NCBI GenBank assembly: GCA_036172245.1
Contig: JAYWIR010000063.1
Coordinates: forward strand, 496,001 to 560,000
From: Raillietiella orientalis
Lineage: Eukaryota
DNA length: 64,000 nucleotides
Direction of reading: 5' to 3'
The translations under genes and the position numbers were made by a program. Under the pieces are notes generated by a model. That model saw only the letters and a list, made by a program, of their open reading frames with translations. It searched no databases and was not told the DNA's origin. This document shows, piece after piece, positions 12,144 through 38,127 of the stretch (its first letter is position 1; the number at the start of each line of letters is the position of its first letter).

Positions 12144-12689
12144 CCTCCAAGGTTGGCAACAAGGCCGTAAGGCGTAAGGCCTCCCCTCAGGAGTCCCCCA
12201 CTTCCGACCCCGAGGTGGAGGCCGGAAGCGCAGCCTGGGTTTCCACGGCACCCCGCAAGAAGGCTGGACGTAAGTCCACAAAGCCGAGGAAGCTCGTCTC
12301 CCCCGTCAAGGGGGAAGAGATGGCTTCCGCAAGCGAGAGTGCCATGAGCGTGGGAAACTCGCGGGACCCGTCGCCCGAGAGACTCCCACGCGCGGACACG
12401 GAGGGGATGGAGGGTGTGGAGGCCGATCAGTTGCCTCAGGTGCCTGAGAAGGCCGAAACCCCCATGGACATCCCGCCCGCCTCGCAAGAGGCGGTCTCCC
12501 CCACACCTTAATCTTCCCACCAGTAATGCCGGGAATCTCCTCCCGCCGTCGTCTGCGCATCGCCGTTTGGAACGTGAACGGCACGACAGATGCCGGCAGG
12601 AGACGAGACATGGCCGATCTTCTGGAGTCCTACGACCTTGCGCTGCTGCAGGAGATCCACGTGATCTCCGCAGAACAAGCGCAAGAGAT
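12144..12689 (+). mobile_element. LINE A0, segment 2 (ORF1 C-part and ORF2 start)
   Basis: NKAVRR..EAGS..PRKKAGRKSTKPR aligns with A1 ORF1 just past the A0 breakpoint; ORF2 MPGISSRRRLRIAVWNVNG..LQEIH..AQEI. Confidence 0.88.
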
Positions 12690-13043
12690 TTCTCACCCGG
12701 TCACGCCGGGGCGTTTATTCCATATAACATAACCAAAAAAAGCAATTATACAAAATAAACCAGTTGGGAACCAAACTCCCAACCGACGACTGAACAAGAA
12801 TGAAGAGAATATTGCTGGCACGCAGGCCAGAGTAACAGTTTTGTGAACGGTGTGGGGGGGCAGGGAACACAAAGAAACCAAAATAAAATAAAAACAATGA
12901 ATAAGGAGGACGGGATAAGGGTCTTTGGGATCGCTCTGGAAGACACGGGGATAAAAGCATGGGCACCGGAAATTTTTACCGAGCGAACGGGGACGGGGTA
13001 TGGGTGGGCGAGAGGTCGCAGGGGTCACCGGATTACGCCGTTC

Positions 13044-16000
13044 TCAAAGGTGTGTAAACCGGCGATGTATTACGGTGATGTCCTCATTCACCTTGTCACG
13101 AAGATGAGACCACCTTGAAGCCTTCTCCATGAATTGAGCTGCAAGCAGGTGAGCCTCCCTTCGCTGCAATGACAACTCGAGGGCGTAGAGGGCCTTCACG
13201 ATGGCGCGAATGCAACACATGGTTGCAACAATCGCACCTACCGAAAATCCATCCCTTCTGAAGAAGCGCCACAGCACATCAATTGCAGTGCCTCCCTGCG
13301 GCAGGATGGCTGAAATCAGCCTTCGCCACAGTTCACGGAGGTCACCGCAGTCCAGCAAGAGGTGCGTAAAAGACTCGATTTCTCCGCACCTCAAACAGTT
13401 TGGCAAAGCAGCTCCCCCGGAAACGATGCTTCGCTGCCTATTACAGTGAAATGCACAATGTAAAAAGAGCAGCACATCTTGTTTCCACTTTAGAGGCAAC
13501 ACGGAGCTCTCCAAACAAAAGGAAGTAACCACTATCTCTTATGGGGCACACTTAAATGTTCGCTCCACCGAAGCAGGCCCTTTGCCCGATTCCTAGGAGT
13601 GGCGGCTTGCACCAGCTCCTTTGTCGTCCAGCTGCCAAAGAGCTAACTGACCCTCGCTATTTTAAAAAAGAACTCCCATTCCGCCGGTAGGCAACCGTCG
13701 TTGCTTGCCCCGAGAACAGACAGCGCTGCGGCGAGTGGTGTGGCGGCCAGACGATCCGACAACTTCTTGTTCTGCATGACTTCGTCCATTTGATGACTGA
13801 GGAGAAGTCGTAGGCGTCGAAGATCTTCCGATCGCGTTCCTTCGGAAGCTACCCACGATAAAAAAGATTCCTGCCGCCATGCAGTATTGTTCATTGAGGT
13901 GGCAGGAGATCCAGCTTTGGGCTTCCAGCAGTGAGGACAACTGCCTCAGCGGGTAGCCAAACCCTATTCCGGTGTGCCGAAAGTGGGGTAGCAACGAAAG
14001 CAGTCCCTCGCTTCCCGTGCAGCGCCTCATTATGAGGCATGCGGGTAAGCACCACGGCGTAAACCACTGCTTGGAACAGAGCCGCAGCATGCAAAACTGC
14101 ACCTGCAGTTCGATGCTGTTTAAGTCGAGGATGCCCAAGCCTGCATCCTGACGCGGCGCCACCAAGTCTTTAAGTCTAACACGGGATCTTGCAGCGCCCC
14201 ACAACGCTTTGCGAAAAAGGCGCTGCGCCCAGACTTTGACTTCCTGTGGGGGTGGACAAACAAAAAACTGGGGCGGAGGAGAGGGGCAACGAAGGTGTTC
14301 CAGATGCAGGCCCGTTCCGGCAAGACGAACTCGCCTCCTGAAAACGGGCCAAGTGCACGCTCTGCCTTCCGAAGGCAGTCCGACCACGCTTCTGAGATGC
14401 AGAAGTCGCCCAACGGCACGCCAAGGTACCTGAGGTACCTGCCCGTGGGAATCCCCAGGTCGATCCAGTCGGACTGCCCCTCTCACGTCGCACCCACCGG
14501 AACAACCATACACTTACTCCTGTTAACACTCACGCCCGCACCGCGACGAATCAACTCAAAGAAGTCTTCAAGCGATGTCGCCGGGGTGGACATGGGCAAC
14601 AGGAGAAGCAGGTCGTCGGCATAGGCTGCCACGGCCGGCGTACCTGGACAGGAACTCGGCAGGTTGGCTAGCGTCAGCCTGTAAGCCTCCAGCACCAATT
14701 CAAAATAGATGCTGAAGAGCAGCGCGCTTAAGCTATCACCCTGCCTAATTCCTCGTCGTACCGGCACGACATACACGCGACAGCCACTGAAAACAATGGA
14801 TGTAATCGCGTGGCGCCAGTAGGAGCGCATGTACGCCAACAGAGATGCCAGAAGACCCAGACGTTCCATAAGCTCAAGAAGAAGCTTTTGGTTCACGCAA
14901 TCGGAAGCTTTGTGCAAATCGACTGCAACCGGCAAGGCTCCCGGTGTCTCCCTCTGCGTCCCGCGCCTAAGTCGGTGTGAGATCGAAGGCGTCGCTTCCG
15001 CACGACGATCCACCGTCACACGATGCTGCAATTGCAGCCATGTGCGGATGAACAAGAGATTTGCGTCCATGGACCGCCCAGGAACAGCGTACGTCTGCTC
15101 CGGACTTACCAAGGAATCCGCGATCCTACCCATCCGCGCCACCGAAAGTTTCGAGAACAACTTGACATCCGAATTCACTGATGTGATCGGACGCCCGTTG
15201 TTCAGTTGGCGCAAATCTCCAAAATTCGGCAGTAGACGCACATTTGCTGATCAAAACGAGGCGGGTACATCGCCCGAGTCTCGCATCAGCGACGAGAGTT
15301 GGAGCACCAGGAGGATGAGCTCCGCCGCAAAACACTGGAAGAATTCCGCGGGGAACCCATCTTCGCCTTGCGCTTTTCGTTTCTTGAGCCCCGAGATGGC
15401 CGAAGAAATTCCCTCTGCCGTGAAGGGCTCATCAAGACGCGCGCGTTCCTCCTCGTCTACAACAGGTGCATCAATCGGCAGGAACAGCCCAGAAAGGCTG
15501 CGTTCCGTTGGTGCCTCTGCATACAGAGAAGAGTAATAGCGCCTGACTATTCATCGTACGTCGGCTGGAGCCCAGCATTCCCGGTCCTGGTCGTCGAGCA
15601 GAACTGTCGCCCCTGACTGCCAGACCTGGCGCTCGGCCTTGGCCTTGTACTCGGATAATCGACCAACGTCCGCGCGCCTGGAAAAACAGCGGGCCTGCAG
15701 AAAATCTCTGCTGTTAAGTACGCCCTCTCCGAAGCCGCGCCGAAGCTGGTGCAAGTGAAACCGTCAGCAGAACTCGCGGACCGATCTTTTCAGATCGTCG
15801 CAGTCCTCGAGCTCACTTATGGCAGAGCCAAGGAGGTACTGGCAAAGACGCTCAGCCGCCTCCGGGTGGCTCAGCCAGTCTGCCGGCATCGTCCAAAAAG
15901 AGTTTGGAAGCCCCTTGCCTGGCGGGAGAAACTCGAACTCGAGCCTGTTGTGGTCTGAAAGCACGGACGGCACGGGCCCTCTCCCACCCACTTGAGAGAG

Positions 16001-16615
16001 CAAGTGTTGTTCAAGGTAAACGTGGTCCGAATTTGCTAGCATAACAGGGTCGCTAGCGAACAAGTTGCACGCGTGGACGGACGCGCACATCTCTTTTGGT
16101 AGGAACTTTTCCCTTTTGTGGGATCTATTCTCGGAAAGCAGGTGGACGTTGAATTCCCCCGCAATGAGATGGGCCACAGTAGGGTGCGATCGAGTGAGCC
16201 ACTAACTTTGAAGGGTACCGAAGAACTCAAGGCTTTCGGCCCATCGTCCAGCACCGCTCGGCGCGTACACGTTGGTTACGACAAGGTCGATCGAGTCCAA
16301 CCACTTGAGTACAAGCTGTCCCACTCGACCTTCCGTGTCGAAACGAAAGCTGCGCACCGCTCCCGCCAAAGTTCCTCGCACGAGGAAAGCGACGCCGCAC
16401 GTACGCGCAACGCCGCACCTATGAAGTAGCGTTCCGCCCGCGCGCCGTTCGATTTCGGCAGCCTGCTCTTCGGAGATGCTGTGAATCTCCTGCAGGAGCG
16501 TCAAGTCGCAGGCGCGCAGAGCGTGAGCCACTAGTTGCCTCTTCTCGTCGTGTTGAAGCCCGTTGACGGTCCAAGACGTCACAACAACACGACGAGAAGA
16601 CGCGATTGCCCTCAT
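13044..16615 (-). pseudogene. C ORF2 (EN-RT-zinc knuckle), multiple stops and frameshifts
   Basis: SWTVNG, LQEIH, NVYAP, GEFN, SDH; DLHKASD, GIRQGDSLS, YADD; CLRCGEIESFTHLLLDC. Confidence 0.92.
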
Positions 16616-17289
16616 GGCGGCTGGGAAAGCGAGGCCATGGTGCTCGCCTCACCCGGCAAGCGGGAGGTAAGCAGCACGACGGACTGGAGGGCGCGGTCGC
16701 CACCGGCCTCGAATGTGCTGCACGTAATCGAGTGCTCCTCCCCGGGTGCAGAACCTGTGGATTCCGGGGTGAGCACTCGCCGTTCTGCGGTGAGTGTGTC
16801 ACGCCTTAGGGCTTCAACCCAGGGGGCGCTCGCTCCCGGGCGAGTAACGCGTCGTTCAGCGGCGCAATGGGACTCCTTTGGGGAGTCTGATGCTCGCACG
16901 ATCGACGAAAGCTTGCATCCGTCCGATTGCACCGGAATGGTCTTCTCGGTGGTTACAGAAGCGGACTTGCACGCGTTAGAGGCGCTGGCTTTTTCCTGGG
17001 AAGAGGCACAAGCTGCGCGTGGTTTCGTATTCGCGCGACTGCTTTTTCCTTTGGAAGAGCTCAAAGATGGATGTTGAGAAGCTTCTTTTGGAGATTTTTC
17101 TTTCCTCCTTTACACAACCTTACATTCGCCTTCGCGATTTTCGGAGGCTTTCGCGACAGATGTTGCGGAAACCTCCGGGATTTTCGCTGCGTTCTCTAGG
17201 GGAGCTGCGTTCCCTACGCCTTTTAAAGGCGGCAACGGAGTCACCTTCTTGACCGTCGGGAGATTGCTCCTCTCCTGCCGATTCAATGA

Positions 17290-20200
17290 ACCTGATTCGC
17301 GGCTCAAAGTATTGTGCGCACGACAACTTAATCAGTTAATTGTGATCGTGTGTGCCCGGAGAGGGGAAGTTTCCAGACGAAACTACAAAAGAAGCGCCAA
17401 GGAAATCGCCGCGGAAGACCTTCAGTAGTCCCGTGCAGCATGACCAGCTGCCAGGATGCAGGCACCTGGAGGAGGAGTGGAGAGACCGTCGTCCCCCATG
17501 GAAGCCATGGAGGTAACGTGCGGCAACGGCGAGGCGGTGGCAGGCATGCCGAGGATCGCGCCCGCAGCAGGCTTTGCTGCGCCGGCGGCGGCGACGCCAA
17601 GGGTCGTGCCCGCGGCGACGACGGCGGAGGTCGTGCCCGCGGCGGCGATGCCGAGGATCGTGCCCGCGGCGGGGAAGGTTGCGCCTGCGGCGGCGATGCC
17701 GAGTGTGCCGCCCGCGGCGGCAACGGTGGCGACGTCGAGGGTTGCGCTCGCGGCGGCGGCGTCCCAGGCAGAACCCGCAGGCGTCCACGCGGTTCAGGGC
17801 GAGACGCCATCTTGTTCGGCTGCGGCGTCGCAGCCCTTTTCTTATGCGTTGGTGGCGGCTGGACAAGTGGGTGTCCACCCACCTAGAAAATTCGGAAAGC
17901 CGCTATGCGGCAAAGTCCAAAAGGTGGATCGGACAATCGTGGATTTAGGGCCGAATGTGAAGCCCATCATTTTCAAGACTGAGCTGATCAAATTCAATAA
18001 TATCAGGAAGGTGTATCTGTCCCTCGATAAAACGGATATTAATTTTGATCGCATAAAAGCGATCATATCGGCAAATAACGGGTTCACAGTTTTTATAGAC
18101 TGTGCAAATATTAAAGAGCGATTGATCCAGAAGGAGATCAATATACAAGGGAGGATGGTTTCTGGTATTGGCAAAATGCCATACACAACCGTCTTTCTGA
18201 ACGGGATCTCCATCCTCACACCGCAACTAACGGTGTAGAATTTTTGGAGCTGTATGGGGAAGTTCTGGACCTTGAATTGCAGAACTTCTCTGGAAATATA
18301 TTTTCTAGCGACATGATCGCCAAAATGAAGTTGAAAGAGGGAGCTGTGATCCCTGGATTAGCCGTTCTTGACGAACAATCTCAGGGAGTGAACGTGCGTT
18401 ACCGGCAACAGCCGATATTCTGCACCGGGTGCAAGCAGTTCGGCCACAGGGCCGGCGCTTGCCCAACGTGTCGTTGTTTTCGCTGCGGCAAAGTAGGACA
18501 TTAAGTCCGAAACTGCCTGCAGCCGGAGGTGTGCTCCTTCTGCAAGAAACACGGACATGCCAAATGGAGCTGTCCGGAGTTTGCAAACTGCAGAAGGATT
18601 CGAGGTCTCTCTCCCGTAAGAGAGAGAAACACCAAGGAGGCGGAACAGCCTCAGAAGGCAGGAAGGCCGAAAAAGGTGAAAGAAGCCGTCCCGGTATCGG
18701 AAGACGGCTTCATACAGGTAGGGAAGAAAGGAAAGAGGAGGATGCTCGTCAAGGAGCAAGAAACCCCTCTTATCCTGGAAGGTGAAGAGCAAGAAGGCGA
18801 GAAGATGGAGGTAGCGCAGGAAGGCGCGGAAGACGAAAAAGCCGAAGCCACTCCGGTGTCACAGGAGGCCCTGCAATCTACGGAGGAGTTGGCATCACTG
18901 GCTAATGTAGTCCTAGAGGTGCAGAGCGGTCCCCAGCAAGAGAAAATCTTGCAGAAGATCTGCAATGCACAGGAGAAGGTCAACCAGGTTGTGGAGGTCA
19001 CCGAGCGCAAAAAGCTAGAGGAACAGCTTCTCGACGTAAAGGCGAACTTCTGCGCCAAGGTCCAGAGAGAGACGCTATCTCGAAAACTGATCGAGCGGGC
19101 CGAACACTCGACGGAGGAGGCGGAAGTAACCGACCTTACCGGAACAGAGAGTGACGCCGGCAGCGAGAAGCCCGCTGCTTCTTCATTGTCTGGAAGAGCA
19201 CGCTTTCTCAGACAGAAGAAGCTCAGGAAGGCCAAGAACTAGGTCTTCCCCTTTTATGACCTCTTCCCTATCGACCGCCAGGAGGCTGAACATCGCCTCC
19301 TGGAATGTAAACGGTATGGTCGACCAGGGAAAAAGAAAAAGGATTGTGCGGACTATCGCACAACAAGACAGTGTGCCTGCAGGAGACCCACAAGATGGGT
19401 CTCGAGATTAGTCAGCAAATGGAACGGCGATTCAACGGGAAGATTTTCGTCAGCGAGGGAGAACGGAACACGCAGGGTGTGGCGGTCCTAATCAAGAAAA
19501 ACTTGGCCCCCACTATTCTGGAAGTGTTCTGTCCCCAACCCGGACGAATCATCGGCGTGCGACTGGCCTGGTCCGCTACTGTTCACCTCATCCTGGTGAA
19601 TGTGTACGGGCCGCACAGGCTAAAACATCGTTGTGCGGAGGCGCTGCATGCAGCACTCCGTGAAAAGGTTGCTTCCAAGGACGTCGTGATTGTTGCTGGC
19701 GATCTCAACATATTGGATGAGATCACTCACTCCGAAGATGCCAGCGGAAGGACGGCGTATCGGCGGTTATCCGACGAGTTCGGACTGGTGTGGCGAACTG
19801 CAAGTCACAAGCCGATCGATCTCGTCCTGCACAGCACCGAACTTGGGAATCGCATCCAGGGTTTTCGAGACATTATGACCACGGTGTCCGATCACCCCCT
19901 GGAGCGGTTTTCCCTAAGAACGGGGAATCCTCGGCGGAGGCAACGCACCAGGGCGGCGCTCATCAGCATGCCCGCCTGGTTCGTAACCCATCCCGGACAT
20001 CAGGCTGTCCTGGAGACGATTCTGAAGGCAACAACAATCCGAAGAGTCGCCGACTGGGACAGCCTGAAACACAGGATACACCTGTTTGCAAACATGCAGT
20101 TCGGAGATAGGCGCTTGAGGCAGGAGGCGTACCGGGAGCTGAACATCCAAGATCGCTCACTCTCAAAGTACTTCGATCAGTACGAGAGTCGGTACGTCTT

Positions 20201-22911
20201 CAAGAACATAAAAGGGGAAGTCGGCGTGCTGGAGAAAAGAAATCTGGCAACAGATATCTTGTGCATCCAGTACGACGGTCAAAAGCGACAGTCGTCTGAG
20301 GACATCGTGGATGCCTTTCAAAGGCATTACATGAAACACTTTAGGCGACAACATCTCTGTCGCTCTAGTCAACAGGCCTTTCTGAGCTACCTCGAGAAGA
20401 GGACCGACGATCTCCAGCGGAACAGACTGGAGGAGGAATTCTCCGAAGACGAGGTGAAGACTGCGTTTGGTCAACTACGCAAGGACGTGGCAGCGGGCCC
20501 AGACAGCGTACCCATCACTCACTATCAGCGGTACTTGCATGCCTACCTGCGTTTGTTCCACCAGTTGACCCTCTGCATCCGTGAAGAAGGAAGACTTCCA
20601 CAGTCCTTATACGAGAGTCGGATGAGATTGTTGCCAAAAGGAGGCGACCTCACGCAGGTCGCTCAATGGAGGCCAATCTCGATTCTGAACTCGGATGCCA
20701 AGTGGTTGGCGAAGATCTGGTCCAACCGCTTAGGCAAGGTCATGTCGAGGCTCATCTCTCCGGTCCAAACGTGTGCAGTCCCTGGACGTTACATGTCGGA
20801 CAATGTCGAGTGTGCCCAGGCCACCGTCGGACTCAGCCGATACGTCGGCGAGAATCTGGCGCTGGTGTTCACTGACATGGAGAAGGCTTTCGACTCCATC
20901 GACCATGGGATGCTGCTGAAGGTTCTGGAGAAGCTAGGCCTTTCGGAACACTTCAGCAACTTCGTGAGGGTGGTACTTCAGAACCAGTACTGCCGAATCA
21001 AAATCAACGGCCAGGAGACGGCAGCAATCCGGATGGAACGGGGAGTCCGGCAGGGCGATTCGCTAAGTCCGATGCTGTTCGTCATCTACATGGAGGCGTT
21101 GTCGTCCTTTATCGAGAAGAGCGAACGACTGCAAGGCATAAGAATCGATGACCAGCGTCTTACCCATCTGGCATACGCTGATGATCCACTCTTCTTTATC
21201 AAGAGAGAGAAATCAACGAGCGTTTCTGGATGTAATAGAGCTGATGGATCAAGGCCTGGGTCTAAAGATCAACGTCCAGAAAAGCTAGCTCTTGCCCGTT
21301 GGAATCCTCGATCTCTCCACTCTAGCGGGGAGAGGATTCCGAACGGTGGACAAGGCCAAGTACCTGGGTGTCTACATTGGCGACGTCTCTGCGTCGAAGC
21401 TATTGTGGACCGAGATCCTAGGGAAAACGGCCAAGGAAGCAGCCAAGTACACCCGAACGGACCTTGGAATGAAGCGAAAGGCCAACATATGGAACGGAGT
21501 ACTCCTTCCAAAAGTGCTCTTCGGGGCGGCCTTCGCGAGGATGAACAAGGAAACCACGAAGGAGTTCGACAAGCTGCAGAGAAAAACACTGTGGGGCCAC
21601 TATCGCCCAAGAGTCCGACTAAAACCCCTGTGTCGTCCCAGGGAAGAAGGCGGTTCCGGGATGAAGTCGTTTGCACACTCCATAGAAATCATGGATACGC
21701 GACACATCCTGGACATTGCCACTCACTGGGATGACTGGCCGTATGCCGCGCACAGGGCCTACGCGTTGTTGTTGAACAACTCGAAAGGCCTGATGACTGC
21801 GCTGCTAGGCCGAGCAGGCGAATGGAAAAAAATCGACCCAACCTGGACGAGGAAGCAACGGCTGGTGCGAAAGCACAAAATCAAGATCGTGCCGAGAAGT
21901 AGGGAACTCTGGCAGGACGAGTTCATCCTGGTGATCCCTTGGATGCTTCCTGTCCCGCCGGACACGAGAAGCTGGATCCACCAGCGGTCCAGAGTTACCC
22001 TTCAACGAATCCAGGAGTGGAAACGTAAAGGGTACCTACATCACACTCGTATACTTAGGTATATAGAGATGATGTTAGGAAGGTTTACCCACATGACTCG
22101 CGAAGTGTGGTTCAACCACAACGACTTTGCGTGGTCTAGGGTAACCAAAACAAACCTCCGAAGACTAATTCAAGAAGAACATAGTGATATCAGTGCCCTC
22201 CAGGAAGCCGCCGATCGCTACGGGAGTGACCGGATCAACCTGTTAGCGATTGGCACGACGCTCTGGAGGAGTGACCTTCCGCCGGGCACCCAGGATGACC
22301 TCCTGATGTTTTATCATGGAGGAATCCAGAGTGGGTCCCGATCGCAGCACTACACCGGAAGAAGGGAAGATCGAGACTGCAGAGCATGTGGAGACATCGA
22401 CACGAGACTTCACGTCTTGACGTGTCCCACATTGCTGCATGACTGGCTGATCCTGAAAAGGATCATCGGACTCACCACCAGTTCCGTAATGGAGATCCTC
22501 GCCGGGATGTTTCAGGGGGATGGTAATGTTCCCTGTTACAATCCCATGGTGAGGACGACCATCGCCCTCTTCATCATCGCCATACTTGTGCGGTGGTGGA
22601 AAATGAGGAAAGCCAGAAGAGCCGCACCACCGATGGAGATCCTACAAGGGCTCCTGAAGAGGGAAATCGGCATTAGAAACTTTGGGAAAATCCAAGCCTG
22701 GACGTACCGATTCATCCTGAAGAGGATAGAAGACGACGCCCGGGACCAAACAGTAGGAAACCCACCATGAGTGCAGAACTTGTGAGAATCCAAGGACTTC
22801 ATAGTGGTAAAAAAAAGTGCTAATGGTATGGATGAGATTGTAGTGTGAATGTTTTTATAGAAAAATTTTAGAAAAATAAATTTACCCCACCCTCTTGGGA
22901 CTTGGGGAAAA
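17290..22911 (+). mobile_element. L1/Tx1-like LINE B1, full length, decayed
   Basis: Colinear with B2; ORF1 stops at 18238 and 18504, ORF2 frameshifts near 19370 and 21205; ends AATAAA..CCCCA..TGGGG-AAAA. Confidence 0.95.
17540..17770 (+). repeat. GC-rich ~27-30 bp coding minisatellite in B ORF1 (also ~23180-23410)
   Basis: Repeated PR(I/V)VPAAA-type units, e.g. gccgaggatcgtgcccgcggcg. Confidence 0.8.
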
Positions 22912-23096
22912 CTGCCGAGTCGGCGAACTTGCTCCGCGGCTCAAAGTATTGTGCGATTGACAAAGTAATCAGTTAATTGTGCTCGTGTGTGCCCGGAGAG
23001 GGGAAGTTTTCCAGACGAAACTAAAAGAAAAGAAGCGGCGAGGAGATCGCGGCAAAAGACCTGCAGTGGTCCCGTGCAGCAAGACCAGCTGCCAGG

Positions 23097-24884
23097 ATGC
23101 AGGCACATAGAGGAGGAGTGGAGAGACCGTCGTCCCCCATGGAAGCCATGCAGGTAACGTGCGGCAACGGCGAGGCGGTGGCAGGCATGCCGAGGATCGC
23201 GCCCGCGGCGGGCTTTGCTGCGCCGGCGGCGGCGATGCCAAGGGTCGTGCCCGCGGCGACGACGGCGGAGGTCGTGCCAGCGGCGGCGACGCCGAGGATC
23301 GTGCCCGCGGCGGGGAAGGTCGCGCCTGCGGCGGCGATGCCGAGGGTGCCGCCCGCGGCGGTAACGGCGGCAACGTCGAGGTTTGCGCCCGCGGCGGGGG
23401 CGTCCCAGGCGGGACCCGCGGGCGTCCACGCGGTGCAGGGAGCGACGCCATCTTGTTCGGCTGCGGCGTCGCAGCCCTTTTCTTATGCGTCGGTGGCGGC
23501 TGGACAGGCGAGTGTACACCCACCTAGGAAATTCGGTAAGCCGCTTAGCGGAAAAGTTCTAAAAGTGGACCGACCAATAGTCGAAATAGGCCCCAACGTG
23601 AAGCCCATTATCTTCAAGACGGGGCTAATAAAATTTAATAACATCAGGGAGGTCTATTTGTCCCTCGACAAGACGGACATAGACTTTGATCGCATTCAGG
23701 CGATCATTCCATCGAACAACGGGTTCACAGTCTTTACAGACTGTGAAAACATTAGAGAGCGATTGATCCAGAAGGGGATCAATATACAAGGACGGATGGT
23801 TTGTGGTATTGGCAAGATGCCATACACAACCGTCTTTTTAAACGGCATCTCCATCCTCACACCGCAACTAGCGGTGTGGAATTACTTGGAGCAGTTTGGG
23901 GAAGTTCTGGACCTTGATTTCCAGAACTTCTCTGGAAACATATTTTCTGGCGACATGATCGCCAAGATGAAGTTGAGGGAAGGAGCGGTGATCCCTGGAT
24001 TGGCCGTTATTGACGAACAATCCCAGGGAGTGAATGTGCGTTACCGGCAACAACCGGTATTCTGCACCGGGTGCAAGCAGTTCGGCCACAGGGCCGGCGC
24101 TTGCCGAACGTGTCGTTGTTTTTGCTGCGGCAAAGTAGGACATCAAGTCCGAAACTGCCCGCAGCCGGAGGTGTGCTCCTTCTGCAAGAAACACGGACAT
24201 GCGAAATGGAGCTGTCCGGAGTTTGAAAACTGCAGAAGGATTCGAGGTCTTTCTCCCGTGAGAGAGAGAAACATCAAGGAGGCCGAACAGCCTCAGAAGA
24301 CAGGAAGGCAGAAAAAAGTGAAAGAAGCCGTCCCGGTGTCGGCGGACGGCTTCATAGAAGTGGGAAAGAAGGGAAAGAGGAGGATGCTCGTCAAGGAGCA
24401 AGGAACTCCTCAAATTTTGGAAGCAGCAGAGCAGGAAGGCGAGAAGATGGAGGTAGCGCAGGAAGGAGCGAAGGAAGAGAGACAGGAAGCCACTAAAGTG
24501 TCGCAGGAGGCTCTGCAGACTACGGAGGAGTTGGCAACACTGGCGGAGGAGATCATGGAGGTGCAGAGCGGTCCTCAGCAAGAGAAAATCTTGCAGAAGA
24601 TCTGCACTACACAAGAGAACATCAACCAGGTGGTGGAGGTCGCTGAACGCGAGAAGTTAGAGGAACAGCTTCTCGACGTGAAGGCGAACTTCTGCGCCAA
24701 GGTCGAGATAGAGGCGCTATCTCGAAAATCGATCGCGCAGGCGGAACACTCTACGGAGGAGGCGGAAATTACCGACCTCACAGGTACGGAGAGTGACGCC
24801 GGCAGCGAGAAGCCCGCTGCTTCTTCATTGTCTGGAAGAGCACGCTCTCTCAGACAGAAGAAGCTCAGGAAGGACAAAAAATAG
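23097..24884 (+). CDS. B2 ORF1, gag-like protein with three CCHC knuckles
   Basis: 595-aa open frame; CTGCKQFGHRAGAC, CFCCGKVGHQVRNC, CSFCKKHGHAKWSC; coiled-coil-like and basic C-terminus. Confidence 0.92.
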   Translation: MQAHRGGVERPSSPMEAMQVTCGNGEAVAGMPRIAPAAGFAAPAAAMPRVVPAATTAEVVPAAATPRIVPAAGKVAPAAAMPRVPPAAVTAATSRFAPAAGASQAGPAGVHAVQGATPSCSAAASQPFSYASVAAGQASVHPPRKFGKPLSGKVLKVDRPIVEIGPNVKPIIFKTGLIKFNNIREVYLSLDKTDIDFDRIQAIIPSNNGFTVFTDCENIRERLIQKGINIQGRMVCGIGKMPYTTVFLNGISILTPQLAVWNYLEQFGEVLDLDFQNFSGNIFSGDMIAKMKLREGAVIPGLAVIDEQSQGVNVRYRQQPVFCTGCKQFGHRAGACRTCRCFCCGKVGHQVRNCPQPEVCSFCKKHGHAKWSCPEFENCRRIRGLSPVRERNIKEAEQPQKTGRQKKVKEAVPVSADGFIEVGKKGKRRMLVKEQGTPQILEAAEQEGEKMEVAQEGAKEERQEATKVSQEALQTTEELATLAEEIMEVQSGPQQEKILQKICTTQENINQVVEVAEREKLEEQLLDVKANFCAKVEIEALSRKSIAQAEHSTEEAEITDLTGTESDAGSEKPAASSLSGRARSLRQKKLRKDKK

Positions 24885-24897
24885 GTCTTCCCCTTTT

Positions 24898-27800
24898 ATG
24901 GCCTCTTCCCTATCGACCGCCAGGAGGCTGAACATCGCCTCCTGGAACGTAAACGGTGTGGTCGACCAGAGAAAAAGAAGAAGGATTGTGCGGACCATCG
25001 CACAACAAGACATCGTGTGCCTGCAGGAGACCCACAGGATGGGTCTGGAGATAAGCCAGCGAATGGAACGGCGATTCAACGGGCAGATGTTCGTCAACGA
25101 AGGAGAACGGAACACGAAGGGTGTGGCGGTGCTAATAAAGAACCACTTAGCCCCCACTATTCTGGAAGTGTTCTGTCCCCAACCCGGACGAATCATCTGC
25201 GTGCGACTGGCCTGGTCTGCGACTGTTCACCTTATCCTGGTGAACGTGTACGGGCCGCAAAGGCTAAAACATCGTTGTGCGGAGGCGCTGTATGCAACAC
25301 TCCGGCAAAAGGTCGCCCCTAAGGACGTCGTGATTGTTGCTGGCGATCTCAACATCTTGGATGAGATCATTCATTCGGAAGACGCCAGAGGAAGGACGGC
25401 GTATCGACGGCTATCCGAGGAGTTCGGACTGGTCTGGCGAACAGCAAGCCACAAGCCAATCGATCACGTCCTGCGCAGCACCGAACATGGGAACCGCATC
25501 CAGGGGTTTCGCGACACTATGACTACGGTGTCCGATCACCCCCTGGTGCGGTTTTCCCTAAGAACGGAGAATCCTCGGCGGAGGCAAGGCACCAGGGCAC
25601 CGCTCATCAGCATGCCCGCCTGGTTCGAAACCCATCCCGTTCATCAGGCTGTCCTGGAGACGATTCTGAAGGCAACAACAATCCGAAGAGTCGCCGACTG
25701 GGACAGCCTGAAACACAGGATACACCTGTTTGCGAACATGCAGTTCGGGGATAGGCGCTTGAGGCAAGAGGCGTACCGGGAGCTGAACATCCAAGATCGC
25801 TCCCTCTCAAAGTACTTCGATCAGTATGAGAGTCGGTACGTCCTCAATAACATAAAAGGGGAAGTCGGCGTGCTGGAGAAGAGAAATCTGGCAACAGATA
25901 TCTTCTTCATCCAGTACGACGGCCAAAAGCGACAGTCGTCTGAGGACATCGTGGATGCCTTTCACAGGCATTACACGAAACACTTCAGGCGACAACAGCT
26001 GTGTCGCTCTAGTCAACAGGCCTTCTTGAGCTATCTCGAGAAGAGGACCGACGACCTCCAGCGGAACGGACTGGAGGAGGAGTTCTCCGAAGAAGAGGTG
26101 AAGACTGCGTTTGGGCAACTTCGCAAGGACGTGGCAGCGGGCCCTAACAGTGTACCCATCACGCACTATCAGCGGTACCTGCACGCCTACCTGCGCTTGT
26201 TCCACCAGTTGACCCTCTGCATCCGGGAAGAAGGCAGACTACCTCAGTCCTTCTACGAGTGTCGGATGAGATTGCTGCCAAAAGGAGGCGACTCTACCCA
26301 GATCGCCCAATGGAGGCCAATCTCGATTCTAAACTCCGATGCCAAGTGGTTGGCGAAGATCTGGTCCAACCGCTTAGGCAAGGTCATGTCGCGGCTGATC
26401 TCTCCGGTCCAGACATGTGCAGTCCCAGGACGACACATGTCGGACAATGTCAAGTGTTCCCAGGCCACTGTTGGACTCAGTCGATACGTCGGCGAGAACC
26501 TGGTGCTGGTGTTCACTGACATGGAGAAGGCCTTCGACTCCATCGACCACGGGATGCTGCTGAAGGTTCTGGAGAAGCTAGCGCTTCCGGAACACTTCAG
26601 CAACTTCGTGAGGGCGGTACTCCAGAACCAGTACTGCCGGATCAAGATCAACGGCCAGGAGATGGCAGCAATCAGGATGGAACGAGGAGTCCGACAGGGC
26701 GACTCGCTAAGTGCGATGCTGTTCGTCATCTATATGGAGGCGTTGTCGTCCTTTATCGAGAAGAGCGGACGACTAAGCGGGATTACCATCGATAGCCAGC
26801 GTCTTACCCATCTGGCATACGCCGATGATCTACTCTTCTTCATCAAGGGAGAGAAAAATCAGCGTGCGTTTCTGGATGTGGTGGACCTGATGGAACAGGG
26901 CTTGGGCTTAAAAATCAATTCCCAGAAGAGCCAGCTTTTGCCCGTCGGAATACTGGATCTCTCCACTCTAACGGGTAGTGGATTCCGTACGGTGGACACA
27001 GCCAAGTACCTGGGAGTCTACATCGGCGACGGCTCTGCGTCGAAGCTGCTGTGGAAGGAAATCCTGGGGAAAACGGCCAAGGAAGCAGCCAAGTACACCC
27101 GAACGGACCTTGGGATGAAGCGAAAGGCCAACATATGGAACGGAGTACTCCTTCCAAAAGTGCTCTTCGGGGCGGCCTTCGCGAGGATGAACAAGGAAAC
27201 CACGAGGGAGTTCGACAAGCTGCAGAGGAAAACACTCTGGGGCCACTATCGCCCAAGAGTAAGACTGAAACCCCTGTGTCGTCCCAGGGAAGAAGGCGGT
27301 TCCGGGATGAAGTCGCTTGCACATTCCATGGAAATCATGGATACGCGACACATCCTGGACATTGCCACTTACTGGGATGACTGGCCGTATGCGGCGCACA
27401 GGGCCTACGCGTTGTTGATTAACAACTCGAAAGGCCTGATGACTGCGCTGCTAGGCAAAGTAGGGGAATGGATAACAATCGACCCGACCTGGAGGAGGAA
27501 GCAACGGCTGGTGCGGAAGCACCAAATCAAGATCGTGCCGCGAAGCAGGGAACTCTGGCAGGACGAGTCCATGCTGGTGATCCCTTGGTTGCTTCCTGTC
27601 CCGCCGGACACGAGAAGCTGGATCCACCAGCGGTCCAGAGTTACCCTTCAACAAATCCAGGAGTGGAGGCGAGGAGGCTACCTACATCAAACACGTATAC
27701 TTCGGTATACAGAGATGATGTTAGGAAGGTTTACCCACAGGACCTTCGAAGTGTGGTTCAACCACAACGACTTCGCATGGTCGAGGGTAACCAGAACAAA

Positions 27801-28470
27801 CCTCCGAAGGCTTATCCAAGAAAACGACGGTGACACCAGTGCCCTCCAGGAAGCCACCGAACGCTACGGGAGTGAACGGTTCAACCTGTTAGCGATCGGC
27901 ACGACGCTCTGGAGGAGTGACCGTCCGCCGGGCACCCAGGATGACCTCCTGATGTTTTATCACGGAGGAATCCAGAGTGGGTCCCGATTGCAGCACTTCA
28001 CAGGAAGACGGGAAGACCGAGACTGCGCAGCATGTGGCGACGACGACACGAGACTTCACGTCTTGACGTGTCCCACACTGCTGCATGACTGGCTGATCCT
28101 GAAAAGGATCATAGGACTTACCAACAAGTCCGTTATGGAGATCCTCGCCGGGATGTTTCATGGGGATGGTAATGTTCCCTGTTACAATCCCATGGTGAGG
28201 ACGACCATAGCCCTCTTCATCACCGCCATACTTGTGCGGTGGTGGAAAATGAGGAAAGCCAGGAGAGCCGCACCACCGATGGAGATCCTACAAGGGCTCC
28301 TGAAGAGGGAAATCGGCATCAGGAACTGCGGGAAGATCCACGCCTGGACGTACCGATTCATCCTGAAGAGGATCCAGGACGACGCCCGGGACCATCCAGC
28401 TGGAATTCCCCCTGAAAAGCAGAACTCTAGTGCAACCCAAGGACCCCCAAGTGCAAAATGTTTGTATTGA
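24898..28470 (+). CDS. B2 ORF2, AP endonuclease-reverse transcriptase (~1190 aa, intact)
   Basis: ATG 24898 (MASSLST); SWNVNG, LQETH, NVYGP, GDLN, IDH, SDH; DMEKAFD, GVRQGDSLS, YADD, KYLG; CAACGDDDTRLHVLTC. Confidence 0.96.
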   Translation: MASSLSTARRLNIASWNVNGVVDQRKRRRIVRTIAQQDIVCLQETHRMGLEISQRMERRFNGQMFVNEGERNTKGVAVLIKNHLAPTILEVFCPQPGRIICVRLAWSATVHLILVNVYGPQRLKHRCAEALYATLRQKVAPKDVVIVAGDLNILDEIIHSEDARGRTAYRRLSEEFGLVWRTASHKPIDHVLRSTEHGNRIQGFRDTMTTVSDHPLVRFSLRTENPRRRQGTRAPLISMPAWFETHPVHQAVLETILKATTIRRVADWDSLKHRIHLFANMQFGDRRLRQEAYRELNIQDRSLSKYFDQYESRYVLNNIKGEVGVLEKRNLATDIFFIQYDGQKRQSSEDIVDAFHRHYTKHFRRQQLCRSSQQAFLSYLEKRTDDLQRNGLEEEFSEEEVKTAFGQLRKDVAAGPNSVPITHYQRYLHAYLRLFHQLTLCIREEGRLPQSFYECRMRLLPKGGDSTQIAQWRPISILNSDAKWLAKIWSNRLGKVMSRLISPVQTCAVPGRHMSDNVKCSQATVGLSRYVGENLVLVFTDMEKAFDSIDHGMLLKVLEKLALPEHFSNFVRAVLQNQYCRIKINGQEMAAIRMERGVRQGDSLSAMLFVIYMEALSSFIEKSGRLSGITIDSQRLTHLAYADDLLFFIKGEKNQRAFLDVVDLMEQGLGLKINSQKSQLLPVGILDLSTLTGSGFRTVDTAKYLGVYIGDGSASKLLWKEILGKTAKEAAKYTRTDLGMKRKANIWNGVLLPKVLFGAAFARMNKETTREFDKLQRKTLWGHYRPRVRLKPLCRPREEGGSGMKSLAHSMEIMDTRHILDIATYWDDWPYAAHRAYALLINNSKGLMTALLGKVGEWITIDPTWRRKQRLVRKHQIKIVPRSRELWQDESMLVIPWLLPVPPDTRSWIHQRSRVTLQQIQEWRRGGYLHQTRILRYTEMMLGRFTHRTFEVWFNHNDFAWSRVTRTNLRRLIQENDGDTSALQEATERYGSERFNLLAIGTTLWRSDRPPGTQDDLLMFYHGGIQSGSRLQHFTGRREDRDCAACGDDDTRLHVLTCPTLLHDWLILKRIIGLTNKSVMEILAGMFHGDGNVPCYNPMVRTTIALFITAILVRWWKMRKARRAAPPMEILQGLLKREIGIRNCGKIHAWTYRFILKRIQDDARDHPAGIPPEKQNSSATQGPPSAKCLY

Positions 28471-28550
28471 GTGAATGAGAGTGCGAATGTAAATTTTGTA
28501 TTTTTATAGAAAAATAAACTTACCCCACCCCTTGTGGGACTTGGGGAAAA

Positions 28551-29795
28551 CTGCCGAGTCGGCGATGGCTCGACTGCATGCAGCGTGCTTTTGCTCGTCG
28601 CGACGCTGCTTTTTACGGCTTTCGTAGCCTTTGCAGTGGGTCCTGCGCTGCAGTGGGGCTGTCCGGAACTCGGAAGGGACAACGGAACGGGGCAAGAAGT
28701 CTTCGCACTGTTGCGATCTTCCTGTTTTCCTACCTTTCCCTCGAGGGTGTTACGGAGATTTCCTGGTTCCTGGCTCGGAGAGGTGCCTGCGAGTTCGGCA
28801 GAGAGGGAAGGCACGGCACGCGTCAAACCCTCGCGCCCCTTTTTAATTGGCTTCCCCGCCGTGACTTTCCCCTTTCGGGGCGTTGCGGGCGGGGATGCTT
28901 TCTTTTCATCCGCGGATCGCTCGTGGTTTTTTGCGAGTTTTTGCGGACGACGTTTTTTATTTGCCGCTGCAGCTTTTCGTGCAGTGGTCTCTTGAACCCG
29001 ACGAATTTCCGCTGCAGCTCTTTTTCTTGCAAGTACCGGGCACTTTTTGATTTCGTGCCCGGAATCTTTGCAATAGCGGCATCTTGGAGAGGGGCACTCT
29101 TTAATTCGGTGCCCATCCTTGCCGCACTGCTCGCACGCGCGAGTCTGGCCTATGAACCACAGGTGAACGACCGTGCCGTTCACCTGCAGCTGCTCAGGCA
29201 CAACACGCCTGTTCGCGACGGTGATCCGCGCGGAGGCTTGTCCAATGTGGACAGAGGGGAAATCCTTTAGAGGATTTGGCCTCCTCCACAGAGCGTGCAC
29301 GGTGGCGAACTTCGCCAGCACACTTACGACATCGCGGTCGGAGATTTCCGGTTCGATATCGCACAATTGAACGACAAAAGAGTCGTCCATCGCGGTAGGT
29401 AGGACTTCCTTGCCATTGATGGTAAACGGCGTACGGAGAAGGCGCTGCACAAGTGCTGCGTTCTTGCACCGAATCTTCGTATATTCCATCCTGCCAGCAG
29501 GCATTATGGCAAGGAGTTCCTCCTCGCGAACGCCGATCCGGACGAGCTCATCATTGAGCTCACGACCGATCCTCCCGTTAAGGGGCCCACTGACCTTATA
29601 ACGGAGTGCAGGCATGTATCCTAATGACACATATGCCTGGAACTCCGCATCGCAGGGTCCTGGTCTTTGGGAGGTAACGGCGGCGTAACTCCTCACCGGG
29701 GGCGAGGAAACCATTACGGAGGATGCGGCCACTTCAAGTGCAGCTGAAGTGCATCCAGTGGCTTGCTCCTCCACACTATCCTGTGTACTGGCCAT
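28551..29795 (-). pseudogene. C ORF1 N-terminal part, cut by the B insertions
   Basis: GYMPALRYKV and VHLWFIG homologous to A0/A1 ORF1; knuckles CEQCGKDGHRIKEC and CRYCKDSGHEIKKC. Confidence 0.9.
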
Positions 29796-29909
29796 GTTGC
29801 ACTATGCTACTTGGCAGATTGCTCAGGAACACACAAGTGCGAGCGAAAACGCAGGCACAAAGTTGCCCGATCGTTGGCGCGGATAGACGCGGAAACACGT
29901 CTGCACTGT

Positions 29910-32254
29910 ACGAGCGCAAGAGATCGAATGGATCTCCGGAGGGCGGCTGTGGTACAGGTGTGGAAGACCGAAAAGTTGCGGTGTCGCCTACCTGCTTCGG
30001 CCAACCGTCGAGGCCGAGGCTCGGTGCGTACGGTTCTACGATCACGGTCGTGTCGGCTAGCTGACTCTCAGGTGGTCCGACTCGATCGATCTGATCGTCA
30101 CGAAAGTGTACGCACCGAGCAGCGCGGACCTGAGGAACAGGAGGGCGAGGAAAGAGTTTTTCCTTGCCCTCCGGCGCGACTGGCTGACCGAAGCAGGCGT
30201 GCGGAATGCCCATCTGGTTGCAGGCGATTTCAACGTTCGCCTGAAACCAGATGGGCAGAATCCCGAGCGTGACCTGGTCAACGAGGTGTGCATGGCGGTG
30301 CACACCTGTAATCTGTTGGCCAGTGCACCGGGGATGGAAGACAGCATTAACCACCTGTTTCTTGACGAGCACCTGTGCCCTCGCGTGGGCAGGCGCGGCA
30401 AGTTACCGTGCGAGCTGTCCGACCATCGCCCGCTAGTCCTCGAGATCCATCCGCGCGACAGGGGCCTTCCCTCGTCAGCGTGGCGTCTCCCAGGGGACTG
30501 GCTGATGCTCCCGGACGCGGCGGAACATCTCCGCACGTTCATACGGAGCTTCAGGCTGCGGACACTCCAGGATTGGGACCGCTTCAAGCGGTCGGTCCAG
30601 GAGTTCTGCGACCAGTTCCCTCTGCACCGCCTACCTACGGGTTTTGGGATCAAGGCTTGTAACGAACGAGCCTATCTGCAGGCCCGCCGTTACGTTAGGA
30701 CCCCCGACATCCGCAGGCTGGCGGAATACAAAGCGGGAGCCGAGAGGCAAGCCTGGCAGTCCGGATCGGCCAGCTTGCTGGACGATCAGGGCCAGGAGCA
30801 CTCGGCAATCGCCCAAATCCGCGGCTTGCTGCGGAGTTACTACTCCTCCCTGTATGCCAGGGCACCTCCGGAGAGGAACGTCTCACGACTCCTGCTTCCG
30901 GAAGGCGCTCCAGCGATCGAGGAGGAGGAGAGAAGGACCCTCGACGAGCCTTTCACGATGGACGAGATCCTCTCGGCCATCGGAGAGCTCAAGAGGCGCA
31001 AGGCTCCAGGGGAGGACGACCTGCCCGCGTAGTTTTATCAAACTTTCGCGGCTGAGCTTACCCCCCTGGTACAGCAACTCACCTTGATGATACGCGAGAC
31101 AGGTCACGTTCCCGCCTCGTTTCGTTCGGCAAAGGTGCGGCTCCTTCCTAAGGGAGGAGATCTGAGGAGCATTAACAACTGGCGTCACATAACAATAGTG
31201 AATGCGGACTCCAAGTTGCTAGCTAAGGTTTAGGCAGAGAGGTTGTGACGGGTTGCCAACATCTTCATCAGCCCGGAACAGACATATGCTGTTCCCGGGC
31301 GAAGCATGGAGGCGAACCTGTTCCACGCTTCCACCTGGCTAGAGCTCCAACATGAAAGGAGCTTGGTGCGCAGCCGGAATTCCGGTGCGTGCGTCGGCAA
31401 GGGGTAGGATGGTCGGGTGGGGAAGGTAGCCCTTGCGGTCGCAATCGACTTGCGGAAAGCATTCGATTGCGTCGACCAGAATCTCCTTCTGGAGCTTCTG
31501 GAACGCTTAGGCTTCCCGGCCTCATTAGTGGCCTACCTGTGCTCCTGCTGGCGCGACGCGCTCATCAACGTTTCTTTCAGAGGACAGACCGTGCACGGCG
31601 TGCCAATGCGGCGTGGGATCCGGCAGGGAGACAGCCTGAGCCCCTTGGTCTTCAGTACCTACTTTGAGTTGGTACTGAGAGCGTACAGGGGAACGCTGGC
31701 GCACCTGCCGCACGACTGTGCCGGTACGCCGGCCGTTTCAGCGTACGCGGACGACCTTCTGCTGCTGCTACCTATGTCCACCCCGGCATCGGCGGTCGAG
31801 GAGTTCTTCGACCTGCTAAGTCGGGGAACCGGGCTTGAGGTGAACAGGGCGAAGTCGTCCGTCATGCCAGTTGGTGCGGCGTGGGCAAGGCAGCAGGACT
31901 GGGTCCGTTTGGGGATCCCCACGGTGAGGTACTTCAAGTACCTCGGTGTGTCGTTGGGGACTACTTTCCGGCGGTAGCGTGGTTTGGCTGCCTCCAAAAA
32001 GTAGAGACGGCGATCGGCCCGTTCCGAGGCGGCAAGTTTTTCTTGCCTGAACGGGCTGCGGTTTGGAACACGTTCGCGGCTCCTCTCCTCCGCCCCCTGC
32101 TTTTTGTTTGCCCCCCCACAGAGAGAATTAAAAAGCAGGCAAAGGACCTCCTCCGTATCGCCCTTTGGGGCAACGGGAGGGCCCGAACCCGCTTAAAGGA
32201 CTTGTGCGCTCCTCGTCGGGACGGTGGTCTGGGCCTCTTGACGCTGGAGCGGCT
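29910..32254 (+). mobile_element. LINE A0, segment 3 (ORF2 EN-RT, decayed, 3' part lost)
   Basis: Resumes AQEI|EWISGGRLWY exactly where segment 2 stopped; VYAP, GDFN, SDH, DLRKAFD, YADD. Confidence 0.9.
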
Positions 32255-32973: not shown

Positions 32974-34546
32974 TTTTCACCCGGATTTCGCCGGGGCGTT
33001 TATTATAAAATAAACATTTACAAAGTCGTGCAGTGGCTGGACCATTGCTCCAGCCACGCACGAAGAAACACAGAGCCTGCCGGGTCACCGGTTCGCAGAC
33101 CAGTACGGTCCACCACGGCTGCAGGGGGAAGGGGGAAAAACAAAAAACAAAACAAAAAGAAAAGAAAAAACTGGGAGGGTACGGGAGGGGATCACAGTTG
33201 CTGGTGGGGCCGTTGCATCCTTTGCAGGATGCCGGCAAGCTCTTGCTGCATGCTTGGATCCAGGTGGGGCCATCGCGACGCCCTCCTCAGGAACTGGGAG
33301 GCTGGCTGGATGGCACCCTTGTCGTGTGGTCCTCCCGTAGCCTTGCTCCAGGCGGTGACGATCCCGCTTAGGCAGCACAAAGCTGCTAACGAGGCCGCTG
33401 GCCGAAGGGCGTCGGCAACGAAGAGGGCTTTAAGAACGTCCCTGGGGTTGCCGCAAGGGATCCTATGGCCGCGGCGAAGCGGAACCAAAGGGGCCGAAGG
33501 GCAACACAATCCACTAGCAGGTGGGGGAGGGACTCCCGTTCCCCACATCTGACGCAATTGGGGTCCACCGCTCCCCAGGTCCAGTGGTGTCGGCGGGCGT
33601 TGCAGGGGAGTCCCCAGTGCTGCAACAGGAATGCCGACTCCTGCCATTTTAAGGGGAAAGTGGAGGTGTTCATTAGTATTGGGAGCCACTTCAAACGTTC
33701 AATGGGAACGTCTAGCAGCGCGCCTTAGCGTAGAAGTCCATGGGGAGGCGTACTAGGGGTGGCAGCGTCAGTCAGCTGACCCGTCTTCTACTCTCCTATC
33801 TCCTTCTCCTTCCCGGAGATTGTTACTGTAACCACCAACTTCGCCGCAACATCGCTGTCCAGATCTTCCATCAGGGAGGGCAGCGCAGCAGCGAGGGGGG
33901 TTCTTCCTGCCCACGCTCTCTTCTTTGGATCCTCCAGGATCTCGCGGAGCGTGCAACTTCTGTAACCTCCAAACAGGAACCTTCGTTCCTGTTGGGAGCG
34001 TTGCATGCCGAACTGTCCCCACGTTCGAACGGTTTCCTGCAACCAGGCACTACCGTTCAAAGGGCGACAGGTGACCAATCCTGGGTTTTTCCGTGACAGC
34101 GCAGCCACCCTCCGTAGCTGGAGTCCGCATCGGTTGACGCGGCGACGGAGTGCAAGAAACGACGTCAGTCCCGTCTTGCCGGTGGGTTGCTGGAGAAGGA
34201 GACGTGCAGGGACGCACCAACAGGTGCACCACAACTCTGGAACAAGTGCCGAAATTCGGAACTGGAGCTGAAGCTCCAGCCGCTCCAGCGTCAGGAGGCC
34301 CAGACCACCATCCCGATGCGGAGCCCACAAGTCCTTCAAGAGGACTCCGGCCCTTCCGTTGCCCCAAAGGCGATACGGAGGAGGTCCTTCGTCCGGTTTT
34401 TTATCCTCTCTGCGGGGATGCAAACAAAAAGCATGGAACGGAGGAGAGGAGCCGCGAACGTGTTCCAAACCGCGGCCCGTTCAGGCAGGAAAAACCTGCC
34501 GCCTCGGAGCGAACCTATCGCCGTCTCTACTTTTGGGAGGCAGCCA
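32974..34546 (-). mobile_element. 5'-truncated A0-subfamily LINE (E), 3' end intact
   Basis: Inverted homology to 31984-32254; DGGLGLLTLERLELQ, CVRCGERESLPHLLVDC; terminal AATAAACGCCCCGG..CCGGGTGAAAA. Confidence 0.9.
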
Positions 34547-36064: not shown

Positions 36065-36325
36065 CGACGACGCTGCATTCTTTGATAATCTCGCTACCCT
36101 GCTCTTTCTTCTTTTGATAGGCTAGTTTCTTCTCGAGACGTCGTTCTTTTTTAGATTTTTTGGCCGTTGCCACCTGCCACCCTGGCTCCAGGCCGTTCCC
36201 CTCGACCTTTTCGGCTGTGTTTGCCGGGGTCTCGGGTGCGGCCTGGGCCTTGGGCGCAGGTGGCACAGCTTTCGCAACAGCTTTCCGCACCTGCCTTTTC
36301 TGCAGCAGCCGGGCACGTTTTCGCG
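36065..36325 (-). mobile_element. A0-subfamily ORF1 fragment, inverted
   Basis: KRARLLQKR..AKAVPPAPK..WQVATAKKSKKERR..IIKECSVVV matches 6035-6295. Confidence 0.9.
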
Positions 36326-36542: not shown

Positions 36543-38047
<1,505 letters not shown>

Positions 38048-38049
38048 TA

Positions 38050-38110: not shown

Positions 38111-38127
38111 CAAGTGAAGTATTGGGT

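Follow-up and report, generated by a model that had tools for sequence, protein, structure and literature searches.

The question raised by this locus is why two full-length copies of one long interspersed nuclear element (LINE) should lie head to tail, each against the same 15-bp sequence, inside another LINE. The window, i.e., the whole 64-kb stretch that was analysed (64,000 nucleotides of Raillietiella orientalis contig JAYWIR010000063.1, assembly GCA_036172245.1), contains two 5.6-kb copies, B1 and B2, of a LINE family named B here; on the plus strand the order is 15-mer, B1, 15-mer, B2, 15-mer. From the reading frame, B1 and B2 interrupt open reading frame (ORF) 1 of an antisense LINE, C. 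The minus-strand frame of C ORF1 reads ...HAVEPSPTRQ up to 28551, and the same frame resumes at 17274 (ERSNLPTVKK...), running for ~210 codons with one stop before an ORF2-like start, MASLSQPP. The parts of the B locus are as follows.

17275-17289, plus strand: left 15-mer CTGCCGATTCAATGA, identical to the other two at 11 of 15 positions; each of the four differences is a GC-to-AT change; palindrome lost
17290-22911, plus strand: B1, full-length but dead, its ORFs broken by three in-frame stop codons and by 1-, 2-, and 2-nt deletions; Pfam endonuclease (APE) and reverse transcriptase (RT) matches in 19311-21734
22912-22926, plus strand: middle 15-mer CTGCCGAGTCGGCGA, preceded by the AAAA tail of B1 and followed by the head of B2
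22927-28550, plus strand: B2, intact, both ORFs open
23097-24884, plus strand: B2 ORF1, three CCHC knuckles
24898-28470, plus strand: B2 ORF2, with APE, RT, and a C-terminal CCHC
28523-28546, plus strand: predicted 3' terminal hairpin of B2, AAAA directly after
28551-28565, plus strand: right 15-mer CTGCCGAGTCGGCGA; the minus-strand C ORF1 frame here gives SPTRQ

An earlier interpretation of this DNA, made from the letters alone (the sequence-only reading), had placed the 15-mers at 17275, 22912, and 28551 and had B1 and B2 beginning at the same nucleotide; the sequences do read so, the two heads starting ACCTGATTCGCGG and ACTTGCTCCGCGG directly after their 15-mers. Exact copies of CTGCCGAGTCGGCGA occur at only two places within the window (22912 and 28551), and six 3-mismatch matches are present elsewhere in it, compared with 1.96 expected from shuffles. 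Each exact copy contains the palindrome GCCGA-G-TCGGC, the dyad of which is base 8, the midpoint of the 15-mer. Likeness among the three copies ends abruptly at 15 nt on both sides. The upstream flanks differ, as had been claimed: CTCTC precedes the left 15-mer (the B1 event) and AAAA the middle one (the B2 event). The right boundary of the 15-mer is identical in the two events. The B1-15-mer-B2 arrangement is a "double insertion" dimer, in which a target piece of target-site duplication (TSD) length is retained in the B1/B2 junction and the same 15-mer follows B2.

Whether the two copies arrived separately was judged from their divergence. Aligned end to end, B1 and B2 are 89.99% identical over 5633 columns, with 547 of 5613 aligned sites differing and eight indels; there are no other B copies in the window. 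By the Nei-Gojobori method, ORF1 (591-592 codons) has 104 synonymous and 86 non-synonymous differences, giving a synonymous divergence (dS) of 0.30 and a non-synonymous divergence (dN) of 0.066, and ORF2 (1181-1182 codons) has 168.3 and 137.7, giving a dS of 0.24 and a dN of 0.052. The dN/dS ratios are 0.215 for ORF1 (bootstrap 0.15-0.28) and 0.218 for ORF2 (bootstrap 0.17-0.27), whereas controls in the two shifted frames gave 1.33-1.56. Differences at codon positions 1, 2, and 3 number 40, 42, and 108 in ORF1 and 61, 63, and 182 in ORF2, i.e., ~60% are at third positions, and the 60-nt sample cited in the sequence-only reading (19561-19620 vs 25205-25264) does contain five differences, third codon positions throughout. 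Copies at a fixed locus are under no coding selection, so a dN/dS of 0.22 accrues only along active, retrotransposing lineages. B2 has neither a stop nor a frameshift over 5355 coding nt; stop-creating changes make up 3.97% of all single substitutions in its ORFs, and if B1 and B2 had each diverged neutrally by the same amount (~4.9%), those ORFs would be stop-free with a probability of ~3e-5. The disabling changes in B1 correspond to ~1.5% neutral in-place change, a level of decay that also fits its excess of GC-to-AT transitions (187 vs 114). Taken with the intact state of B2 and the broken state of B1, the low dN/dS relative to its controls identifies the two as separate retrotransposition products. 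That B1 and B2 are independent insertions from different B sublineages, as the sequence-only reading had it, is thus well supported. Two other sources of the divergence were considered and rejected. An assembly artefact would not leave copies that are 10% different, and decay by repeat-induced point mutation or at CpG sites is contradicted by a CpG observed/expected ratio of 0.94-0.96 in B1 and B2 and by only 41 vs 24 CpG-to-TpG/CpA changes.

The 3' junctions of B1 and B2 are alike, reading ...GGGGAAAA up to the junction and CTGCCGAG beyond it (AAAA, then the 15-mer). Two of the two window copies agree in the nucleotide of the 3' junction and in the target sequence that holds it, which is a very small sample; re-use of the site was judged at this one locus, from two B copies or perhaps three if a contig of the related sequencing run X1 (below) is included. 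Use of the same site by independent B copies, which the sequence-only reading had recognised, argues for target specificity, and from these sequences a target specificity of B is likely. The CTCTC left of B1 means that no T run primed this insertion, which counters simple A-tail priming as a rule for the family. Under the usual geometry of target-primed reverse transcription (TPRT), the left edge of the 15-mer marks the position of the bottom-strand nick for B1 and B2 alike.

The explanation that we favour, and consider probable, is that B sublineages independently hit one 15-mer site via specific nicking. Two members of these sublineages would have retrotransposed separately into a single site in the C-terminal tail of C ORF1. 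In each event, the bottom strand would be nicked directly left of CTGCCGAGTCGGCGA and the top strand probably directly right of it; both nicks would then lie 2 nt outside the palindrome arms, at TCGGC-NN^ on either strand (bottom TCGGC-AG^, top TCGGC-GA^), and a single endonuclease specificity could account for the pair of nicks and for the fixed 15-bp repeat. Fill-in would duplicate the 15-mer. After the arrival of B1, the right-hand 15-mer would have retained both its native downstream context and the palindrome, would still have been a substrate, and could have received B2, the outcome being the double-insertion dimer repeat-B1-repeat-B2-repeat. We infer sequence recognition by the endonuclease or ribonucleoprotein of the element, symmetric nicks, and the order B1 before B2. 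A more ambitious version is possible but doubtful: that B is an active, strictly sequence-specific L1-superfamily LINE whose APE reads the palindromic 11-bp core and nicks it symmetrically to yield a fixed 15-bp duplication, that it specialises in a safe haven within the ORF1 tail of a different LINE family, and that a 5' leader with a copy of the target aids closure of the 5' junction.

Further B sequence was available from X1, which contains a fraction of 0.41 of the words sampled from the junction stretch and has 178 contigs that match at a likeness of at least 85%. One contig, of 595 nt, runs across the B2/C junction and has 11 differences over 28264-28857. Another, of 519 nt, matches 22912-23218, including the 15-mer, ungapped and with 14 differences; the match ends exactly at 22912 and does not enter the B tail, leaving 212 nt unaligned. 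B1 and B2 differ over this span at 28 of 303 sites and 4 gap positions, and the 519-nt contig has the B1 state at 5 of 13 listed differences but not at the other 8. Such mixed states set this B head apart from B1 and show that it is not simply B2 either; it too directly follows the 15-mer, beyond which its upstream sequence is different. The contig may represent a third occupied site or, instead, a B1-less X1 allele of the present locus. Summed contig depth in X1 is ~11-20 at the B head, 50-97 in ORF2, and ~10-16 over the C ORF1 flank. The rise from head to ORF2 is as expected with 5'-truncated B copies; the subsequent drop is not convertible into a count of flanks, because the B 3' untranslated regions (UTRs) differ by 27% and the contigs are short. 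The segment 22880-22911 is without X1 contig coverage and is uninformative either way. No contig matched in X2, and X3 gave one 33-nt low-complexity match. When patterns for the B head and for its tail/junction were scanned against public sequence, 0 loci were found in metagenome_contigs (two patterns) and 0 in genome_contigs (two patterns).

A number of observations weigh against independent, specific nicking of a host-owned 15-mer. The first nick for B2 may sit up to 4 nt further left, within the AAAA of B1. The left repeat is different at 4 of 15 positions, while the older TSD of C, a perfect 12-bp duplication of AGCGCAAGAGAT at 12678-12689 and 29913-29924, is identical at 12 of 12; with 0.25-1 change expected in the left repeat, the probability of at least four is ~1e-4 to 0.02. 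The left repeat runs on without a break into the heightened divergence of the B 5' UTR, with 7, 5, 1, 5, and 6 differences per 30 columns, and this continuity fits a repeat carried in the RNA of the element. The left 15-mer thus probably did not originate as a straightforward copy of the target. The sequence-only reading had explained it as a TSD that decayed together with B1; B1 is indeed broken and B2 intact, but decay of the left TSD is doubtful when in-place change is ~1.5% and the C TSD is unaltered. The same reading took the rejoining of C ORF1 as evidence that the 15-mer is host sequence. The frame does continue from HAVEPSPTRQ into ERSNLPTVKK, but 15 nt is five codons, the C frame is kept with one 15-mer or with none, and it is therefore silent on whether a 15-mer was native to C. 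Most B sequence in X1 is without a C-like ORF1 flank at a likeness of at least 85%, which is weak evidence, contig depth being a poor proxy for copy number. At an X1 loose end at 27832 (two contigs, agreement 0.75), A-rich sequence and not the 15-mer stands before the B piece. Finally, jockey, which is not site-specific, likewise makes double-insertion dimers, as described in the part of PMC5932611 consulted.

A first alternative is that the 15-mer travels in B RNA, either as a 5' leader or as 3' read-through, and guides insertion by annealing; B would then home chiefly to sequence resembling its own end, that of a resident B copy included, and would be stacking on itself instead of parasitising C, and the C site would be a mere 11/15 match. 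The divergence of the left 15-mer resembles that of the adjoining 5' UTR (3 of the next 15 positions; 19/166 overall) with the older C TSD perfect, the frame test is blind to ownership of the 15-mer by C, and the third B head, in X1, has the canonical 15-mer. Sections of PMC4494074 also discuss annealing, and co-transcription with the target, for R1/R2. What speaks for a TSD instead is that homology among the three copies breaks off sharply, extending past 15 nt in neither direction. The X1 head contig is harder to reconcile with the 15-mer as a 3' extension, because a B tail would be expected before the 15-mer there and none aligns. The left 15-mer may have arrived with the B1 RNA, as a leader derived from the upstream repeat of its donor that helped the complementary DNA to anneal to the target, or it may reflect an imprecise 5' junction. 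Every one of these variants still demands a recurrent, sequence-defined site, and an RNA-borne 15-mer to that extent overlaps with specific nicking; as an explanation in its own right we regard it as unlikely.

It is decidedly less probable that the dimer arose by double insertion without true specificity, at a local hot spot or by re-nicking of a weak, newly duplicated motif as in jockey dimers, with B2 primed on the T run opposite the AAAA of B1. Non-specific LINEs form such dimers, according to the same portion of PMC5932611, the region consists of LINEs nested within LINEs, and the AAAA leaves the first nick for B2 ambiguous by as many as 4 nt. The B1 junction has no T run, however, the right boundary of the repeat is the same in both events, the third head in X1 follows the same 15-mer, and the B1 and B2 lineages, at a dS of 0.24-0.30, do not represent a burst from a single source.

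Template switching by LINE RTs is established, and a single TPRT event, in which the RT copied B2 RNA and switched to a B1-type RNA, would yield a heterodimer in one step and explain why two lineages are adjacent. In that case the 5' end of the B2 RNA must have supplied the middle 15-mer, implying a donor flanked by the same 15-mer, and B1 has disabling mutations where B2 has none; we judge this to be very improbable. Least credible of all, and rejected here, is a local tandem duplication of the 15-mer plus B by unequal crossing-over or slippage, with later divergence in place, since although unequal exchange between TSDs would give repeat-B-repeat-B-repeat, neither a dN/dS near 1 nor decay of both copies was found: the ratio is 0.22 in both ORFs compared with 1.3-1.6 in the controls, third positions hold ~60% of the differences, B2 is without a stop or frameshift in 5355 nt (P ~3e-5 under symmetric neutral decay), and CpG observed/expected is 0.94-0.96 in both copies. 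Overall, the interpretation made in the sequence-only reading is partly supported.

The APE domain of B2 ORF2 is complete (Pfam Exo_endo_phos, residues 76-276, E 2.3e-18), and the RT matches RVT_1 at residues 524-770 (E 2e-32). The closest solved structure to B ORF2 is human L1 ORF2p (8sxt, E 8.7e-52), with R2 proteins at 9e-26. A protein search with B2 ORF2 gave 24 matches at E <=0.001 among 6969 candidates, the best being 24-25% identical; no member of the B family was among them, and the nearest proteins are unnamed and 21-27% identical. Atlas clusters for B are generic (RVT_1, Exo_endo_phos, and zf-RVT) and without taxa. By these sequence comparisons, B is classed as an L1-superfamily LINE family previously unsampled in the databases searched. 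It shares with Tx1-type elements the CCHC knuckles in ORF1 and the combination of APE, RT, and a C-terminal Cys motif in ORF2, features that are common to other clades and not diagnostic. B1 and B2 both end in GGGACTTGGGGAAAA. The predicted GC hairpin is kept in both, with the rest of the 3' UTR differing at 21 of 79 sites (27%); its stability is no better than that of shuffles (z -1.2 and -1.3), and an Rfam search of the window gave no match. The 3' end of C (12690-12735, minus strand) has the same build as that of B, with AATAAA, a short GC hairpin (CCCCGG...CCGGG), and a short A run, which suggests from sequence that the B and C families both use stringent 3'-end recognition. The 5' part of B ORF1 (17546-17757 and 23187-23397) contains 27/48-bp tandem repeats encoding Pro/Ala-rich repeats.

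The host of B is one of several nested elements, for which a further LINE in the window, A, serves as reference.

28566-29912, minus strand: 5' part of C, with a short 5' UTR and ORF1 from an ATG at 29795, CCHC knuckles
12690-17274, minus strand: 3' part of C, comprising the ORF1 tail, a decayed ORF2 (APE and RT), and the 3' end; RVT_1 match in 14483-15250, tblastx match to A ORF2
12406-12689, plus strand: D-left, a 5' piece of an A-like LINE (ORF2 start) that aligns to A 8233-8501 and is interrupted by C
29913-32254, plus strand: D-right, where D resumes; from 29917 it aligns to A 8494-8862 and onward

By these alignments, C is nested antisense in a third LINE, D; a self-BLAST also matched 8290-8483 (A) to 12476-12671 (D-left). 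LINE-in-LINE nesting is the local norm, and the presence of B inside a LINE is for this reason unremarkable alone; it is the double hit that is remarkable. The sequence-only reading had made B an antisense hyperparasite of an A/C family ORF1. The antisense orientation to C holds, but hyperparasitism does not follow from one C copy in a region where nesting is common and A is without the site: no 15-mer site with <=3 mismatches is present in the ORF1 region of the A copy in the window, and A ORF1 matches C ORF1 in the N-terminal domain only, not in the tail that bears the site. A short protein-fragment search for an empty C ORF1 site returned 187 candidates, none of which scored.

Within A, segments 5340-6005 and 6701-7357 each share ~34% identity at the translated level with the N-terminal domain of C ORF1; either the A ORF1 domain is duplicated or two elements stand in succession at 5340-7357. 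Near 34545, a LINE fragment is duplicated in inverted orientation: 34197-34544 (minus strand) and 34546-35343 (plus strand) meet head to head there, and both match one stretch of A (10039-10918). The ends of the window, 1-918 and 63078-64000, repeat each other in direct orientation (96.6% identity over 923 columns) and may mark a segmental duplication with a spacing of ~63 kb or a repeat with a long unit. Between GC-rich LINE blocks, 36000-44000 is AT-rich (GC 0.32-0.45) with an extreme GC skew (+0.28 to -0.67) and is probably simple or satellite-like sequence.

Returning to independent insertion by specific nicking, confirmation of it across the genome would mean that an intact LINE of the APE type, B, cuts a long palindromic target with precision. 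B would then be a natural case in which to learn how APE endonucleases come to recognise particular sequences, targeted RNA-mediated insertion might gain a scaffold from it beside R2-type systems, and the coding region of another LINE would join the known transposon targets of site-specific LINEs. The dN/dS of adjacent copies cleanly distinguishes a double insertion from a local duplication.

How B compares with known systems depends on the property considered. L1 nicks loosely at T-rich sites and has a long poly(A) end. B resembles human L1 ORF2p in its domain order of APE, RT, and a C-terminal Cys-rich segment, and L1 also inserts by TPRT with TSDs of about the length of the 15-mer; in contrast, the end of B is a fixed AAAA preceded by a conserved GC hairpin, and the B1 site is GC-rich and not T-rich. 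In the portion of McGurk & Barbash (2018, PMC5932611) consulted, Drosophila R1 tandems are separated by duplicated ribosomal DNA (rDNA) target, and dimers of P, hobo, and jockey are attributed to double insertion with a TSD in the junction. B is like R1, as it is portrayed there, in having non-LTR (long terminal repeat) copies head to tail, a duplicated target piece between them, and a target that can be re-used. The R1 target is 28S rDNA with a 33-nt junction repeat, whereas that of B is a LINE ORF1 tail with a 15-nt repeat; moreover, the B copies are from distinct sublineages (dS 0.24-0.30), without expansion past two.

Transposons are named among the targets of specific non-LTR elements in part of a review (PMC5035012). 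A report of a LINE targeting the ORF1 of another LINE was not found in the literature searched, with Repbase Reports and Kojima & Fujiwara 2004 outside its coverage. For the Tx1 group, the sections of Kojima (2015, PMC4494074) consulted describe Tx1L in the piggyBac-type Tx1D, Tx1-Mar in Mariner-N4_AMi, Tx1-9_AMi in Harbinger, and Tx1-8_Crp and Tx1-4_AMi in LTR elements, as well as copies flanked by other copies and stacked at one target. The transposon targets reported in those sections are DNA transposons and LTR elements, whereas that of B is a LINE ORF1; the specificity of B is deduced from two (perhaps three) copies, and its closest relatives are 24-25% identical. The likeness to the Tx1 group, within the same sections, is that of an APE-type LINE with an L1-like ORF2, occupying defined sites inside other transposons, sometimes antisense, and stacking there. 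By analogy, and with the protein likeness itself extending to the L1 superfamily alone, B fits the pattern of the target-specific LINEs known in the Tx1 group.

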